Assembly: GCA_004022145.1 (NCBI GenBank)
Contig: RCNU01000005.1
Reading direction: 5' to 3' (one strand)
Length of the DNA: 64,000 bases
From: Paecilomyces variotii
Lineage: Eukaryota
Shown here: piece after piece, positions 42,558 to 52,123 of the stretch
Layout of the letters: each line of letters starts with the position of its first letter
Position numbering within the stretch: the first letter of the stretch is position 1
Position numbers and translations under genes: made by a program
The notes under the pieces: generated by a model
The model's database searches: none
Seen by the model: the letters and a program-made list of their open reading frames with translations, nothing else
What the model was told of the DNA's origin: nothing

Positions 42558-45158
42558 ATGCTAGAACCAGCTGTTAAACAGCAACTCTACCATTCCAATT
42601 ACAGAAAAGGTTATTCTGACGATGTAGACGTGCTCCGCGATCTCGAGTACCCAAGTCTCAAAGGTGCGCCCTCATATAGAGCTTGTTTGATTTCACTATG
42701 GTGTTGACTATGTTGCTTCTTCCCGCCTACAGAGACAACATATTTGGACCATGCAGCTACCACACCATATGCAAAGTCTCTCATCGAGACCTTCTCGCGT
42801 GACTTAACCGGGAACCTGTTCGGAAATCCTCACTCCGCATCTTTGTCTTCGCAGCTCACTACTCGCCGCATCGAAGACATCCGCCTGCGTATGTTGCAGT
42901 TCTTCAATGCCGATCCTGAAGCGTTTGACCTTGTCTTCGTCGCAAATGCTACGGCGGGCATAAAACTCGTTGCTGATGCGCTACGTGATTTCGATGGATC
43001 CGGGTTTTGCTATGCGTATCATGTGGATTCACACACCAGTCTGGTAGGCGTGCGGGAGCTGGCAGAGAACGGCAAGAAATGTCTGCTGTCAGATGCAGAA
43101 GTAGACAGATGGATTGCAGATCTCGAACAGGACAGCCCTGATGAGAAGGCCTCGACGCGCCTATTTGCATACCCAGCACAGTCGAATATGACAGGAAGAC
43201 GTCTACCATTGAGATGGTGCAAAGAGATCCGAGAGGCTACCGACAGCGGAGGCCATCAGAGAACTTTCACCCTGCTCGATGTGGCCTCCCTTGTCTCTAC
43301 TTCCCCATTCGATCTAAGCGACGCTTCAGCTGCGCCTGACTTCACGGTTCTCAGCTTCTACAAGATCTTCGGCTTCCCTGACCTTGGAGCTCTGATCGTC
43401 CGCAAGGGCGCTGGCGATATCTTCCAGCGAAGGAGGTACTTTGGTGGCGGCACGGTAGATATGGTCGTCACGCATGGAGATCAATGGCACGCTAAAAAGG
43501 AGTCTTCCGTGCACGACAAATTGGAAGATGGTACACTTCCATTCCACAATATCATCGCCCTAGATTCAGCACTTCAGACGCATTACCGATTGTACGGCTC
43601 GATGGCTAACATATCCGCGCATACTGGCTTATTGGCGGATGAACTATTCAAGCAGCTATCCTCAAAGGTGCATTGGAATGGGAGGAAAGTATGCCATATA
43701 TTCACATCGTCTGCATCCGGGTGCCGAGACCCATTGAATTATGGCCCCATCATCACGTTTAATCTACAGGACAGTCAAGGTGGATGGGTCGGTAAATCGG
43801 AAGTCGAAAAGATGGCTGCCGTTAGAAATATCCAGATCAGATCCGGGACGCTGTGCAACCCAGGAGGGATGACTGCTCAGCTGGGACTATGCGACGACGA
43901 GATGAAACGCAATTTTGCTGCTGGTCAGCGATGCGGAGACGAGAACGATATCATTGATGGCAAGCCAACGGGCGCTTTGAGAGTCAGCCTCGGCGCAATG
44001 ACTAACATGCGAGATATTGAAGTGTTTCTTGCATTCATTGATGAGTTTTATGTTGAGAAAGCCCCAGAATTGGACATATTGCGCGTTCCTATGCAGGTAC
44101 CGGATCCGAATTTCTATGTGGAAAGTCTCTGCGTCTATCCGATAAAGAGTTGCGGCAGCTTCAAGGTAGCCAGTGGCCAACGCTGGGAGATCAGAAGGGA
44201 AGGGTTTGCTTGGGATAGAGAATGGTGTCTCATTCATCAGGGAACAGGCGTGGCCCTCAATCAGAAGCGATATCCCCGTATGGCTCTGATTCAGCCCTAT
44301 ATTGATTTGAATCGAGGAGTACTACGGATTACCCTCCCGGACCATTCTGGTTCTGATCCTCAAAGTCTCGAGGTCTCTCTGGCGAAAGAAGATCCAGACC
44401 TTGTTGCGGCCGAGATATGCCGGAGTTCCAAGAAAACATCTACAGTGTGCGGCGACTTGGTGACAGTCCAGGTCTACTCATCCCCGTCTGTGTCGGCTTT
44501 CTTCTCGGACTTCCTCAATGTACCATGTACACTTGCTCGGTTCCCACCGCAGACCTCTACACGTTACTCAAAACCTAGACGTCCGTTTGTTCGCAAGACC
44601 AAGCATACTGGCAATGACATGCCTGGTGCCTTTCCGGAACGGCCGATGTCTTCACCTGAACGGCAAAACCCGATTCTCTTGTCAAACGAAAGCCCGGTAC
44701 TCCTCATATCACGATCATCAGTGAACCGTTTGAATGAGACTATCAAAGCCAATTCCAAGAATGGTGGTAGGATCAGCAGAGCCGTTGCTGCGGATGTCTT
44801 CAGAGCCAACATCGTCGTTGCGGAGAACACATCCAATGGTTCCAGCCTCCCAAACATTGTTGAACAACCATACGCTGAGGATAGCTGGATGTCACTCTGC
44901 ATTGGTCCCGAGAGACTCCAGTTTGATGTTCTAGGACACTGCCAACGGTGTCAAATGGTCTGCATAGACCAGCTTACCGGTACCCGCAGCGAGGAACCTT
45001 TCTCTACCCTGGCGAAACACAGGAGGGTTGACGGGAAGGTGGTCTTTGGAAGACATATTTGTTTATCGGCTGACGAGAGGTCTGACGATAACTTCTCTGA
45101 ACCGAAGACTATCATGGTTGGTGATACCGTTATCCCGAGCTGGGATGGAAGGGTCTGA
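42558..45158 (+). CDS. hxB: Molybdenum cofactor sulfurase (NifS-like + MOSC)
   Basis: YLDHAATT, FGNPHS, PLP lysine motif SFYKIFGFPDLGAL, RSGTLCNPGG, YPIKSC, FRANIVV and CQRCQMVC. One 5' intron. Confidence 0.93.
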
Positions 45159-45480: not shown

Positions 45481-46192
45481 TTACCTTCTCGGCCACTTCT
45501 TCCATCCTCTTCCGTGTCCTCTCTGCAAAGAAACAACATTGATTAGTATGAGGTGTTCCGCAGCAAGATTACATAACTTTGGTTATGTGACAAGGGGAAG
45601 AGTATCTTACCTGCTTCCACGCGCGGATCAACTCCGGCATCTCCAGCATGGCCTTCTTCCTCTCCTCCAATCTCGTCTCCAGCGTACGCTCCCACTTGTG
45701 ACCCTTGACCTTCTGTCCGATACCGGTACCCTTGATTGCCAGACCGCGTTCAAGGCGTCTCGTGTCCTTGAACTCTGTCGACTTTCGTCCCGGGGGTAGC
45801 AGGGCCTCCACGTTGTATTTCTGGGCCAGTTTCACGAGATCAGCCTGCTGTCGTAGACCGATGCGAGCACCAATCCACTTGCCGGTGCGGAAGTTCTTTC
45901 GTGGCAGGAAGGGGTTCGGATAGTCTGGGTTCGAGTAGAGAAGGGCTTTGGCAGACGACCAAGCAGTCGGGTCTCGTGTCTGACCCTTGGCGTCCCGGTT
46001 CGGGGTGTATGGCGACGGAAGAGTCCCGTCCGGTGATGGCTCTGAAGACTCTGAGGTTCCTTCTGTAGCAGGGGGTGTTGGGCGAGGAGCGACCTGCGCG
46101 GAGTAGATTTGGGGAGGATAGCGGGCGAAGAAGTTGCGCAGTCGGAGAGGGAGCTTGCTCACCAGGCCCTCGGTGGCCTGGACGGCGGACAT
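45481..46192 (-). CDS. MRPL25: Mitochondrial large ribosomal subunit protein mL59 (MRPL25)
   Basis: LRNFFARYPP, PNPFLP, GLRQQADLVKLA, KVKGHKWER and MPELIRAWKQ|RGHGRGWKKWPRR*. One intron. Confidence 0.88.
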
Positions 46193-46546
46193 TATGGCTG
46201 CTTGAACGGCAGATGCCACCAATTGATTAGGAAGAAAGACAGCTGGCAGCACGATGGCGGGATGTCTGTTTATTGTTGGTTCTCTCCCTCCGCTGGCCTG
46301 TTGCGGTCGAGAAATTCGTGATGCTCCGAAGATGCATCGATTGCCCGGGCGGACGGCGCTAAACCCCATCTGGTTCGGTCGGCCATTCTCGGCTTCCGGG
46401 CGAAGAGAGAGTGAGTGTTCACTGCCATCTATCTCGAGTCAAGACATCGCGCTCTCTATCCTGTCAGTCAGTGTCTTGCGAGAATAAAATCTCTCATTTC
46501 CATCGGGTGCCTCCAAAGACCCTTGACTGCTGATATATCTAGCGCC

Positions 46547-48955
46547 ATGGCTGAATACAACTACGGCGGGACAGAGGAGGAGAATGCGGAGTTGAGGAAG
46601 ATCGAGACAGAACTGGTGAGACCATCCCTGGGTGTTGCATGAAGCTGTTCAGTCGTAGATCTATCTAACCCTCAGGGAACAAACAGGCTGAAGACCCGGA
46701 CAACTTCGACACGTGGGAGAAGCTCGTCCGCGCGGCGGAAGGCCTCGAGGGTGGTATTAACCGCAATTCCAACCCTCAGGCCATCACGACGGTCCGGAGT
46801 TTCTATGACAGATTTCTAGCCAAGTTTCCGCTGCTGTTTGGATACTGGAAGAAATATGCGGATCTGGAGTTCTCGATAGCTGGCACGGAAGCTGCAGAGA
46901 TGGTGCGCGCAATCCTGCCATGACTTTACCTCCCCCCCCAGTGACCGACTCTTGGCTGATGCGTTTTCATAGGTTTATGAGAGAGGCGTTGCTAGCATTT
47001 CGCCGTCCGTCGACCTCTGGACCAACTACTGCTCTTTCAAGGTCGAGACCAACCATGACTCCGATATCATTCGAGAGTAAGTATACAAGAAGTGGTTTTC
47101 CTTCCCTATAACCGTTAGCGATGCAGCGCGAACACCATTGGGTGGTCTCGAATACGCATGAAAGCAGGTGGTGATTTGGCGAGGTTCCTCGATGATGGGT
47201 GAGATCGGCGCCTACCACCCAGGTTCCCTGGAAATTACTTCTCACCCATGACTTCTCAGGCTGTTTCATTTCCTTGACCACATCTATCAAACCAAGACCA
47301 GCACACCAATCACTCTGTTCGGAGACTTCCATTCTGCGCACGATGAGGCTGACCTTCATCCCACTGAATCATTTGGGCCCATAACCACTGAGAAATTATA
47401 CTCATGTTTGCCATCCTTGCCATCTCCCTCGCTCTTTTCCCTCTGTGACTGTTAGAATCTAGATATGCTGACACGTGACCCTACAGATTATTCGAACGAG
47501 GAGCCAGTGCTGTGGGATTGGACTTCCTGGCGCATCCCTTCTGGGATAAGTACATCGAGTTTGAGGAACGTCTCGAGGCGACCGACAAGATCTTTGCAAT
47601 TCTCGGTCGCGTGATTCACATTCCCATGCACCAGTACGCTAGGTACTTCGAACGGTATCGCCAACTTGCACAGACACGCCCTGTGTCCGAGCTGGCACCC
47701 CCAGAGATCCTTGCCCAATTCAGAGCGGAAATCGAAGCAGGCTCGGCGCATCTCCCACCCGGAGCCAAGGCGGAGGCAGAGATTGAAAGAGATCTCAGGC
47801 TGCGCACCGACACATATCATCTTGAGATCTTCTCCAGAACCCAGACGGAGACGACCAAGCGTTGGACTTACGAGTCTGAGATCAAGCGGCCTTACTTCCA
47901 CGTCACAGAGCTGGATGAAGGTCAGCTCTCAAACTGGAGGAAGTACCTCGATTTCGAGGAAGCTGAGGGTTCCTACCCGAGAATCCAATTCCTGTATGAG
48001 AGATGTCTTGTTACCTGTGCTCACTATGAGGAGTTCTGGCTGCGTTACGCCCGGTGGATGTCTGCCCAAGAAGGAAAGGAAGAGGAAGTTCGCAATATCT
48101 ACCAGCGCGCGAGCTATTTCTATGTGCCGATTGCAAACCCCACGACCCGTCTGCACTATGCCTACTTTGAGGAGAAGTCTGGTCGCGTCGATGTCGCCAA
48201 GGATATCCACCATGCCATTCTTATCAATCTCCCTGGACATGTCGAGACTATTGTCTCTTTGGCTAATCTCTCGCGTCGTCATGGCGGACTCGACGCAGCG
48301 ATCGAGGTGTACAAATCTCAACTGGATTCGCCGCAGTGCGAACTAGCTACCAAAGCTTCCCTGGTTGCAGAGTGGTCACGACTCCTGTGGAAGATCAAGG
48401 GCTCGCCAGACGATGCACGCCAGGTGTTCCAGAAGAATGAGCAGTACTACCTTGACAGCCGTGCATTCTGGACCAGCTATCTCATGTTTGAGCTGGAGCA
48501 GCCGACCAGTGCTGAGACCGAGAATGTTCAATATGAACGAATCAAGCAAGTTATCGATGATATCAAGTTGAAGAGCACTCTTTCGGCAGACGTCGTCAAG
48601 GAACTTGTGCAGACCTACATGGTCTATCTTCTGGAGAGAGGCACAAAGGATGCCGCCAAGGAGTACATGACACTAGACCGTGAGATCCACGGTCCTACGT
48701 CTGTCCAGACCGCAATCAAGGGCAGGCCTACGGAGAAAGGTCCTCAGAACGGCAGCCAGGGAACGCCTGTCCCTGTCCCTGTTGCTGTCCCTGATCCAGC
48801 AGTTGCTGCGGCAGCCCAGGGAAGCCCTTACGCTGCCTACTATGGACAAACCCCGGTCAACGGCGCTGTAAGTATCCCTTAGTTCTCGAAAGATCCAGCG
48901 ATCTCCTGGTTCTGACCGCCTACAGGTGCCAACACCAGTTGCCCGTTACCCTTGA
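46547..48955 (+). CDS. PRP39: U1 snRNP HAT-repeat splicing factor Prp39
   Basis: FLAKFPLLFGYWKKYA, SVDLWTNYC, GLDFLAHPFWDKYIEFE, IKRPYFHV and LYERCLVTCAHYEEFWLRY. Five coding exons; intron 3 spans 47077-47486. Confidence 0.93.
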
Positions 48956-49485
48956 TTTCCCTTTCCTGTTTTGTCTCCGTTGCGAACCGTGTTCCCTTGC
49001 GTGTAGAACAGACGATTTCATACGAGTACCCTATTTCGGCGTGTTGACCGGTGGGTGGCGAGTTTCTTGTTGGTGAGCCGACAGCTTACGCTGCTTTTTG
49101 AACGGCATCACAATGCATCTACGGGATGCAGATCTACAGGGATTGGACAGTTCTTTGTATTCTATGGCTTTCATGCCTATCAGTTAGTTACCCTCTTCGT
49201 AATGAGTTCGGTTATGCTCCTTTTCTAGCAGCATGCAATCCCCGATGCTCCTCGTAGTGGTGACGGTAGTATTCCCGCTCTGACGGGATTACTCTAATAA
49301 CATGTCTTCCGCCGTAAGTATAGATGATCTAAGTAAACAGTATTAATTCATCATTATCAATCTGCGGAAATCCCACCGGTTTCATGCATCATGTGACTTC
49401 GCATATGGCACGTGTGGCGACCCGCATGAATGACCATCTCCGCCAGCTTCGAGCTCATCTCCGCCGACGCCTTTCATACTCACAA

Positions 49486-52123
49486 ATGACAATGATGGAC
49501 GGCATTGTGACAAGCGGACCAGCTGGAGCGCCTCCTCCTGCACCTCCGGAGGACCCTATCGAGCGTCCTCCTACTCCGCCCCCTCCTCCGCCGCCTGAAC
49601 ATTCTCTTCCTCCTCCGCCTTCCGACGCGAGCGCGCCTCCACCCCCGCCAGAAGCAACTGCTCCCCCTCCTCCGCCGGAGGATGCGCCGCCGCCTCCCCC
49701 AGCGCCAGTTGTTGAGAAGAAGAAGAGGGCAGGATGGGGCTCGCAAAAGTCGACGACACCGTTGAGTGTGGAGGAGCTGTTGCGGAAAAAGAGAGAGGCG
49801 GATGCGGCAGCTGCAAAGGTATGTTCTTTTTCTCTATCCAATGTTCTTCAGTTTGGTCAATGAAGCGTCGCTAACTTGATGTTCTATCTGTAGCCCAAAT
49901 TCCTTTCTCGAGCGGAAAGAGAGAGGCTGGCTCTCGAGAAACGAGCTAAAGAAGTCGAAGCCGAGCGACGAGCGAAAGCAGAGCGGGCAACAAATGGCGC
50001 TGATCGAAATAGGGCGCGATCACCTACAAGCTCGGACGGATTGAATGGCCTACCCAGGCCTGTTCCTACTGGACCACGAGCCATGCGGAATGGGGAGGTA
50101 CCTACAGCGCGAGCGGCGATGCGCAACTCGCAACCCAACAAGGACTACGACATGCAGCCCCCTCCTCCACCGAAGCCTATATCGTTTGGTCCTCGGGATT
50201 CAAAGGGAGAGAAGCGCCCATTGGATGAGGAGGAAGCTCAAGCTGCGCTCATCAAGCAGCGGTATATGGGACAAGATCAGACCTCGAACTTTTCGGCGAA
50301 GAAGAAGCGCAAGCGCACGACGGAAAGGAAATTCAACTTCGAGTGGAATGCAGAGGAGGATACCAGTGCTGACTACAATCCGCTGTACCAGAACCGTGCA
50401 GAGGTCAACTTCTTCGGCCGTGGCCGTCTGGCCGGTTTCGGTGACGATGTCGCGGATACCGTTGTGCGAAACTATGCCAAAGCTCTAGAAGAGCGTGATA
50501 AAGAAGCTGGAAGTGCGAGAGCCCGTGAGATTTTGGAGATGGAGCGGAGACGGAGAGAGGAGAGCAGCAAGGCCGCTCTCGACAAACATTGGAGCGAGAA
50601 GAGATTGGACCAGATGCGGGAAAGAGACTGGCGTATCTTCAAGGAAGACTTCAACATCAGTACCAAGGGTGGAAGCGTGCCGAATCCTATGCGGTCATGG
50701 GAGGAATCGAACCTGCCCCGGCGGCTGCTCGAGCTTATTGACAAAGTCGGATATAAAGAGCCGTCACCTATTCAGCGTGCAGCTATCCCTATCGCCCTGC
50801 AGAACCGAGATCTTATCGGTGTTGCTGTTACTGGTTCGGGTAAGACCGCTGCATTTTTGCTTCCCTTGTTTGTCTATATCGCAGAGTTGCCTCGGATAGA
50901 CGAGTTCGAGTGGAGAAAGGCCGATGGCCCGTACGCCATTATTCTAGCTCCCACCCGTGAATTGGCGCAGCAGATTGAAATCGAAGCCAAGAAGTTCGCG
51001 GGTCCTCTTGGATTCAACGTCGTGAGTATCGTTGGTGGTCACTCGCTGGAGGAACAAGCATATAGCTTGCGGAACGGCGCAGAGATCATCATCGCTACTC
51101 CAGGTCGTCTGGTGGACTGTATCGAACGACGCATACTCGTCCTCAGCCAGTGTTGCTACGTCATCATGGATGAAGCTGATAGGATGATTGATCTGGGTTT
51201 CGAAGAACCTGTCAACAAGATCCTTGATGCGCTGCCTGTCTCGAACGAGAAGCCCGATACAGAAGAGGCAGAAGACTCCCGTGCGATGAGCCAACACATT
51301 GGAGGCAGGGACCGTTACAGGCAGACTATGATGTACACGGCAACTATGCCCTCAGCCGTCGAGCGCATTGCAAGGAAGTATCTCCGTCGGCCGGCTATTG
51401 TCACAATCGGTAGTGCCGGTGAGGCAGTCGAAACCGTGGAACAACGTGTCGAGTTCGTCGCAGGCGAAGACAAGCGGAAGAAGCGCCTTGCAGACATTCT
51501 CATGTCAGGAGAATTCCGTCCTCCGATCATCGTCTTCGTCAACATCAAGAGGAACTGCGATGCTGTCGCTCGCGACATCAAATCATGGGGGTTTTCTTCG
51601 GTTACGCTACACGGAAGCAAGACTCAGGAACAGCGAGAGGCGGCTCTGGCCTCAGTTCGAAACGGCACCACGGACGTTCTGGTCGCGACCGATCTCGCTG
51701 GACGAGGTATCGATGTGCCAGATGTCAGTCTTGTCGTCAACTTCAACATGGCCACGAACATCGAGAGTTACACTCATCGTATCGGTCGTACTGGACGTGC
51801 TGGAAAGAGTGGTGTGGCAATCACCTTCCTGGGCAACGAAGATGCCGACGTCATGTACGTATATTTCTTCCTTCTTTCCTTACATTCCCCCCATCCCCAT
51901 GCATCATTTGTTCCATACATTTTCCATCCCAAAAACGTAGCCAGTTATCTAACATTCCATTCCTAACAGGTACGACCTCAAACAAATGCTCATGAAGTCT
52001 TCCATCTCGCGCGTTCCCGAAGAACTACGCAAGCACGAAGCAGCCCAATCGAAACCTACTCGAGGTGCACAGAAGAAAATCGAAGACAGCACTGGTTTTG
52101 GAGGAAAGGGTGGATGGGCATGA
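49486..52123 (+). CDS. PRP28: DEAD-box splicing helicase Prp28 (DDX23)
   Basis: KFNFEWNAEEDTS, HWSEKRLDQMRERDWRIFKEDF, AVTGSGKT, DEAD and HRIGRTGRAG. Polyproline N-terminus; two introns. Confidence 0.95.

Follow-up and report, generated by a model that had tools for sequence, protein, structure and literature searches.

A 64,000-nucleotide stretch of the Paecilomyces variotii genome (GenBank assembly GCA_004022145.1, contig RCNU01000005.1), referred to here at its full length as the window, carries on its plus strand a gene for PRP39, a HAT-repeat auxiliary protein of the U1 small nuclear ribonucleoprotein (snRNP). One intron of this gene, at 47077-47486, is 410 nucleotides (nt) long, as against 71, 70 and 58 nt for the other three, and two outcomes of its splicing exist as RNA: removal of the whole intron, which yields the productive mRNA, and splicing at internal sites, which leaves a premature stop codon in the message. 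A preliminary description of the window had assigned the gene to PRP39 and singled out this intron as a size outlier; both calls are borne out.

The PRP39 model, built from RNA contigs and translation, consists of exon 1 (46547-46615), exon 2 (46687-46902), exon 3 (46973-47076), exon 4 (47487-48867) and exon 5 (48926-48955), all on the plus strand, and its spliced translation is a product of 599 amino acids. Exon 3, which is supported by RNA joints, translation and Pfam, closes on an incomplete codon of two bases (..CGA GA), and exon 4 encodes the HAT repeats. The identity of the gene rests on Pfam matches to HAT_PRP39_C (E 1.6e-63) and HAT_PRP39_N in exon 4 and to HAT_PRP39_N in exons 2 and 3. 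Over the part that they share, the exon 4 protein and a P. variotii protein are 100% identical; identity to Prp39 of P. variotii No. 5 and of P. lecythidis is 95%.

The 410-nt intron is made of three tandem short introns, A, B and C, which separate two non-coding pseudo-exons, 3a and 3b. It opens with a strong outer donor, GTAAGTATA (GA/GTAAGT; 47077-47085), followed at 47097-47126 by a pyrimidine tract, a branch-like TATAAC (47107-47112) and two candidate acceptors, TTAG (ending at 47118) and GCAG (ending at 47126). This block would form the 3' end of a possible 50-nt mini-intron A (47077-47126), and the acceptor at 47126 is used by a database model from P. variotii (NCBI; P0004). Were A spliced, it would be followed by pseudo-exon 3a (47127-47198, 72 nt), a poorly conserved segment; in the isoform observed, 47077-47198 is kept whole. 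Mini-intron B (47199-47259, 61 nt) has a GTGAGA donor, a branch-like TTCTCAC (47239-47245) and a CAG acceptor; its joint is found in one RNA run (X2) and, weakly, in another (X8). Next comes pseudo-exon 3b (47260-47405, 146 nt), a conserved non-coding "poison" piece that ends at the weak donor C, CAT/GTTTGC, with a conserved pyrimidine-rich stretch behind it (47403-47425; conservation about 0.9). Mini-intron C (47406-47486, 81 nt) has its branch, GCTGAC (47467-47472), and its acceptor, CAG (47484-47486), in common with the whole intron. A further GT lies at 47168 (CAG/GTGGTG), and the acceptor at 47118, if used, would put the TGA at 47159-47161 in the reading frame of exon 3. Finally, a perfect 10-bp inverted repeat, ATGGGTGAGA and TCTCACCCAT, spans 47195-47249 (47195-47204 with 47240-47249) and, as a candidate helix, would bury donor B. 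The intron ends, the TATAAC, the two acceptors, the GTs at 47168 and 47199 and the TGA all lie where the preliminary description had put them.

The two splicing outcomes are seen in four RNA runs (X2, X6, X8 and X12) from four studies, whose assembled contigs were compared with the window. Three of the sets, X2, X8 and X12, are spliced; X6 is a single 33.7-kb unspliced contig, DNA-like and uninformative on splicing. In X12, which bears a different organism label and differs from the window at 15 bases, a single contig has all four introns removed, including the long one (joint 47076>47487). In X2, whose organism label is that of the best DNA matches of the window, a single contig has lost introns 1 and 2 and the last intron and leaves the outer donor unspliced. 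Unbroken from 46972 to 47197, this contig skips 47199-47259 (61 nt, GT..AG; joint 47198>47260, side 147), retains 47260-47405 and then skips 47406-47486 (81 nt, GT..AG; joint 47405>47487), taking the acceptor of the whole intron. The canonical joint 47076>47487 is absent from the X2 assembly. X8, a food-fermentation metatranscriptome, contributes a contig that is unbroken across 46972-47199 and a 1.9-kb contig in which 47269-47486 is kept and the last intron is spliced.

The use of donor C is not confined to Paecilomyces. A transcript contig (L076), compared with a related genomic locus (L064), skips 74 nt, from GTATTTGA to the outer CAG, and retains the piece orthologous to 3b. The two are 85% identical over the pseudo-exon, and the genomic locus is 84% identical to a Sordariales Prp39 (Immersiella). 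Donor C is thus joined to the outer acceptor in two lineages, Paecilomyces (X2) and Sordariales (L076), in both cases as seen in contigs only. Contig depth was left unused for the ranking of isoforms. In X8, k-mer depths are 136, 96 and 63 for the contigs that cover exon 3 and the kept intron sequence (46972-47300) versus 18.5 and 47 for the flanking PRP39 contigs; depth of this kind cannot rank gene parts, and mixed strains could explain the difference.

Reading through the outer donor is fatal to the reading frame. The sequence becomes ..CGA GAG TAA, and translation of the X2 isoform stops at 47078-47080, right after ..DIIRE. This isoform retains 268 nt of the intron and codes for no more than residues 1-130 of the 599, with its premature stop about 1.6 kb and three exon junctions upstream of the normal one. 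The contig and its translation bear out the earlier proposal that internal sites are used and give a stop-containing mRNA. The outcome is the same across the fungi surveyed: among the parsed orthologues, read-through of the outer donor brings an immediate stop (+1) in 60/60, and retention of 3b also leads to a stop in all 60, inside the piece in 51 and downstream, via a frameshift, in nine. Even splicing of A, B and C together gives a stop in 43 of 44 orthologues. Pseudo-exon 3a alone (47127-47198) is both open and in frame in 7/44 orthologues, including the window. A coding role for the pseudo-exons was considered and rejected: their lengths vary (92-186 nt for 3b across orthologues) and the stops are universal.

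The antiquity of this arrangement was assessed with 80 fungal PRP39 loci from one metagenome scan, which share 58-83% amino-acid identity in exon 4. Exons 3 and 4 were both found in 75 of them, the other five being short loci without exon 3. The exon 3-exon 4 gap is 320-521 nt in 74 of the 75 loci, with an intron of 317-518 nt at the same codon; at the remaining locus (L025) the gap is 3, and the sequence, which has intron 2 but not the long intron, resembles cDNA. The longest intron of the set (L074:3482-3999, 518 nt) retains the first pyrimidine/TTAAC block despite the loss of donors B and C. Of the 75 introns, the one in the window included, 62 are distinct and were aligned with MAFFT. All 62 have a CTRAC-type branch, a terminal AG (YAG in 58) and the same codon position, and the outer donor is GTAAGT in 56 and GTGAGT in six.

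Conservation inside the long intron takes the form of sharp blocks within otherwise unalignable sequence. At least 60% conservation across the 62 distinct orthologues is found at 90 of 371 internal positions of the long intron (37 of them at 80% or more) versus 0/31 in intron 2; orthologous intron 2 measures 44-116 nt in 56 sequences and is absent in several. In L014, L020, L054, L055, L058, L061 and L063, where exons 2 and 3 abut, the long intron is retained. The blocks, read along the plus strand, are the donor GTAAGTATA (from 47077); a pyrimidine tract and a branch-like TTTCCTTCCC(A/T)TAAC about 20 nt past the donor (0.8-0.9 conserved); GGGTGAGA (47197-47204); CTTCTCAC..CAG/G (47238-47260); CCCATGTTTGC, or CCCGTATTTGC in other clades (47401-47411), followed by the pyrimidine-rich stretch; and the outer branch (47467-47472 in the window). 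TTTCCT stands at about +20 in 55/62 introns. A YAG follows the first block after 6-22 nt, mostly at +14, in 45 of 62, versus 22% at random places in the same introns, and the possible mini-intron A would measure 33-63 nt (median 49) across orthologues, with GCAG at 47126 as its acceptor in the window.

Donor B is GTGAG in 61/62 introns, acceptor B is present in 61/62, and a GT in the donor-C context, as GTTTGC or GTATTTGC, in 60/62. Mini-intron B is 51-76 nt long (median 55.5) and mini-intron C 66-101 nt (median 73.5), both normal sizes for fungal introns. In nearly all orthologues, B has CTCAC or CTTAC at its branch-like block instead of the consensus CTRAC. Against the U1 5' end, donor C lacks either the +3/+4 or the +5 pairing. 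The inner sites are weak, and stay so across classes. By their named best matches, the loci belong to Eurotiales (Rasamsonia 90%, Penicillium 99%), an Onygenales-like group, Chaetothyriales (Rhinocladiella 87%), Lecanoromycetes (Alectoria and Lepraria, 90%), Dothideomycetes (Aureobasidium pullulans 99.7%) and Sordariales (Immersiella 84%); the best named matches of one large clade, L013-L077, are at 68-78%. The long intron is ancient, and it and its internal sites span at least four fungal classes (Eurotiomycetes, Lecanoromycetes, Dothideomycetes and Sordariomycetes). The preliminary description had held that a lack of conserved length and internal sites would speak against its proposal; what is found is a long intron in 74/75 loci and inner sites that recur over at least four classes. 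Of the internal sites it had listed, the donor at 47199, the TATAAC block and, less strongly, the acceptor at 47126 fall on conserved blocks; the donor at 47168 and the TGA at 47159 fall in an unalignable stretch. In runs X6 and X8, which come from close relatives, the retained pieces lack 1 nt at 47161 and have 1 extra nt after 47304.

The helix formed by the 10-bp inverted repeat is present in the minimum-energy fold (z -1.74); 150 of 500 shuffles score as high for covariation, its outer pairs are not kept across species, and RNAalifold predicts no consensus pairs on the orthologue alignment. The invariant core, GTGAGA/TCTCAC, is able to pair in nearly all orthologues; since each side serves as a splice signal as well as a pairing partner, sequence alone is no guide to the helix, and a structure that buries donor B is a possibility. 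A "zipper" structure of the intron as a whole was rejected, as its fold is no better than those of shuffled sequences (z +1.38).

The intron structure explains a recurrent mis-annotation of PRP39. Coding sequence runs through the long intron in seven of 165 full-length database models. One of them, the P. variotii model P0004, takes in both 47127-47198 and 47260-47405 and, after these, omits the conserved ELFERGAS..HQYAR block. In some database proteins, the ATG in ATGTTTGC (window 47404-47448) opens frames, "MFAAL.." or MLMFA.., that continue through mini-intron C into exon 4, and some Aspergillus PRP39 models begin only at exon 4. The affected protein models, over window positions 47077-47650, are P0004, P0124, P0125, P0126, P0130, P0278, P0288, P0010 and P0073. 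The ATG of ATGTTTGC, within donor C, was considered as a conserved alternative start and rejected: the length of intron C does not preserve the frame from one orthologue to another, and the copy in the window, though in frame, runs into a TGA.

PRP39 is flanked upstream by a gene for a molybdenum-cofactor-sulfurase-like protein (42708-45158, plus strand; Aminotran_5, MOSC_N and MOSC) and by that for the mitochondrial ribosomal protein mL59 (45620-46195, minus strand). Downstream, at 49400-51966 on the plus strand, lies a gene for a DEAD-box helicase of the DDX23/Prp28 type (Pfam DDX23 4.8e-29, DEAD, Helicase_C). Prp28 releases U1 from the 5' splice site. PRP39 and a Prp28-type gene adjoin in 19 of the 80 loci (L001, L003-L005, L012, L014, L020, L028, L030, L032, L036, L038-L041, L048, L049, L051 and L052), with Prp28 on the downstream side of PRP39 in Eurotiomycetes and on the upstream side in Lecanoromycete-like loci.

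Splicing factors whose output is held down by a conserved unproductive isoform are well known, and PRPF39 itself is a mammalian example. An alternative-exon isoform of mouse and human PRPF39 is described as a weak target of nonsense-mediated decay (NMD) (De Bortoli et al. 2019, PMC6582350). In human cells, inclusion of the poison exon is reported to need PRPF39 together with TRNAU1AP, which amounts to negative self-regulation; when PRPF39 is knocked out, its poison exon is excluded, and when it is overexpressed, the endogenous mRNA falls (PMC13408128, Nat Commun 2026). The fungal and mammalian elements belong to the same gene family, and both are conserved alternative isoforms with a stop, which in the mammal lowers functional output. 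They differ in place and build as the human element is described: it is a classical cassette between exons 8 and 9 that removes the C-terminal dimerisation half, whereas the fungal element acts at residue 130 of 599, in the N-terminal HAT domain; it works by cassette inclusion, whereas the fungal one consists of three tandem short introns with the outer donor read through. Common descent of the two seems unlikely.

Other parallels are partial. The intron of srp2, the SRSF5 orthologue of Neurospora crassa, one of the longest in its genome, resembles that of PRP39 in that both are long introns at a conserved place in a splicing-factor gene and both have a stop-carrying, non-productive form; the srp2 intron sequence is, however, described as "not notably conserved" among Aspergillus, with NMD targeting by retention and no poison cassette in that account, whereas the PRP39 intron has internal sites and flanking blocks that recur from class to class, and is spliced internally (Lareau and Brenner 2015, PMC4379411). 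Nam8/TIA-1/RBP45d are reported to promote, with PRP39a, the use of weak donors via downstream U-rich elements (bioRxiv 10.1101/2022.08.12.503727). The fungal intron similarly combines a weak donor (GTTTGC or GTATTTGC) with a conserved pyrimidine-rich stretch behind it, and has a conserved TTTCCTT block 20 nt past the outer donor; the elements described for the Nam8 system are U-rich, whereas the fungal blocks, known from sequence alone, are C/U-rich rather than pure U. SMNDC1/SPF30, a different gene, has an autoregulatory poison exon and offers a like case of a splicing factor kept in balance through an unproductive isoform with deep conservation; the published account does not establish fungal isoforms, deep RNA data being lacking (PLoS Genet 2024, PMC11357089). 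In Neurospora, prp39 mRNA is reported to rise 2.7-fold after exosome knock-down, in a study that, as published, did not look at isoforms (PMC4549623). No paper that describes a regulatory intron in the PRP39 of fungi came up in a full-text literature search, in keeping with the statement in the preliminary description that such a thing was not known to have been described in filamentous fungi. What is new in the fungal gene is the place of the element, at residue 130, its build from three mini-introns and the read-through of its outer donor.

Taken together, the best explanation, with a probability of roughly 0.6 as a whole, is that the long intron is an ancient splicing-control module in which the use of inner sites is tied to feedback by Prp39 and U1. 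On the productive route, the perfect outer donor (GTAAGTAT, 47077) pairs with the outer branch and acceptor (47467-47486), and 410 nt are removed. On the unproductive route, donor B (GTGAGA) joins the acceptor at 47259, and the weak, proximal donor C (GTTTGC) takes the shared acceptor, for which it would compete with the outer donor. Since the stop comes about 1.6 kb and three exon junctions early, the resulting mRNA is presumably lost to NMD, or is at least useless. Donor C uses up the only outer acceptor, and its junction, ..CTCAT/ATTATT, recreates no splice site, which makes the product a dead end. Recognition of a weak donor would depend on the U1 snRNP and on its auxiliary proteins (Prp39, Nam8), so that high U1/Prp39 activity should shift the choice to the weak donor nearby and reduce the output of PRP39, a negative feedback. 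That the intron is a selected unproductive-splicing switch is likely; that the level of Prp39 or U1 is the input of this switch is argued by analogy and would be slightly the worse side of an even bet. The preliminary description, which had proposed a feedback loop acting through a poison exon, was right in spirit and wrong in the exon that it drew; its interpretation is partly supported, with the loop itself still a proposal.

The same conserved switch could respond to an input other than Prp39/U1, e.g., the general load on the spliceosome, temperature, stress or a different RNA-binding protein that sits on the pyrimidine-rich blocks. Such an input would be compatible with the same anatomy and the same RNA evidence; the most conserved words that are not splice sites are pyrimidine-rich (TTTCCT at +20 and the stretch after donor C) and could be protein sites, and the isoform assembled differs by run (X12 versus X2 and X8), which could reflect growth conditions. 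Nothing, however, singles out another input, and human PRPF39 is reported to be needed for inclusion of its own poison exon (PMC13408128); a different input is considered unlikely, though worth keeping in mind. It is improbable that this is an ordinary long intron whose inner joints are functionless by-products of cryptic sites. GT and AG dinucleotides are abundant by chance, the 3a stretch and the donor at 47168 are unconserved, and intron retention and cryptic splicing are reported to be common in fungi (Yarrowia, PMC2911113), but noise would not account for the near-invariance of donors B (61/62) and C (60/62), for the constant sizes of the inner introns, for a neighbouring intron that keeps nothing internal or for the use of the same weak donor in two classes. 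Stepwise removal, in which early loss of the inner introns would bring the outer sites closer together and the RNAs seen would be intermediates toward the productive mRNA, is a shade less probable still. Fungi splice by intron definition and favour introns of 50-80 nt, and B is wholly internal, such that its removal would not block later outer splicing; the removal of B, however, saves only about 55 nt, and the use of donor C leads to the dead end described above. A nested intron, or stwintron, was rejected, as no inner intron interrupts the outer donor (47077-47085) or the outer branch and acceptor (47467-47486).

Two further alternatives concern what the intron contains. The preliminary description had drawn a small poison exon, running from 47119 or 47127 to 47167 or 47198 and joined to exons 3 and 4. 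The acceptor at 47126 does lie at the conserved +14 past the TATAAC block, and the donor at 47199 is conserved and used; that donor, however, joins 47260, with removal of a 61-nt inner intron, and not 47487. None of the four cassette junctions (47076>47119 or 47127; 47167 or 47198>47487) is present in X2, X8 or X12, in contigs that drop rare forms and cannot prove absence. Neither the donor at 47168 nor the TGA at 47159-47161 is conserved, the latter being unaligned and affected, in the two runs from close relatives, by the missing nucleotide at 47161; the conserved version of the cassette, 47127-47198, is in frame and free of stops. The conserved poison part is instead 47260-47405, bounded by the weak donor at 47406, which the preliminary description did not list, and the small cassette is very improbable. 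Fungal introns often host small nucleolar RNAs (snoRNAs), and the conserved blocks could in principle belong to such a non-coding RNA or to a structured element that made the intron long. The blocks, however, are the splice signals themselves, and the fold of the whole intron is unremarkable. Rfam yields no match at gathering score in the whole window and only chance-level hits (E 2.6 and 6.6) in 46400-47700; with nothing credible in Rfam, a snoRNA or other non-coding RNA host was dropped, and the idea retains next to no probability.

Several points weigh against the splicing-control module with Prp39/U1 feedback. The contigs give presence only; they carry neither ratios nor strand and do not prove that the joints share one molecule. 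The stop-containing isoform is the sole form assembled in X2, which fits poorly with efficient decay. In X8, the 47198>47260 joint is weak, with 28 letters on one side and 90% likeness in a metatranscriptome, and splicing of mini-intron A is not seen in the contigs of any of the runs. One locus (L074) is without donors B and C yet keeps its 518-nt intron, and another (L029) is without the GT of donor C. Isoform decay, and the response to Prp39, U1 or any other input, are steps that we infer. Finally, the human poison exon sits elsewhere in its gene, between exons 8 and 9, so the analogy would be one of logic, not of descent.

If the module does work through Prp39 and U1, the fungal PRP39 element would parallel the self-regulation recently shown for human PRPF39. 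Either way, the intron offers a compact natural system, of about 400 nt, for the study of competition between a weak proximal and a strong distal donor over one acceptor under intron definition, and it could possibly serve as a reporter of U1 activity in fungi. A more tentative extension is that PRP39 pre-mRNA may have acted as a gauge of U1 auxiliary activity since the common ancestor of the main Pezizomycotina classes. Donor C, with its pyrimidine-rich tail, would fire only when Prp39 (with Nam8) is plentiful, capture the acceptor before the distant donor does and shut the gene down; this would be the logic of the human PRPF39-TRNAU1AP loop, built independently from intron-definition parts, with three mini-introns in place of a cassette.

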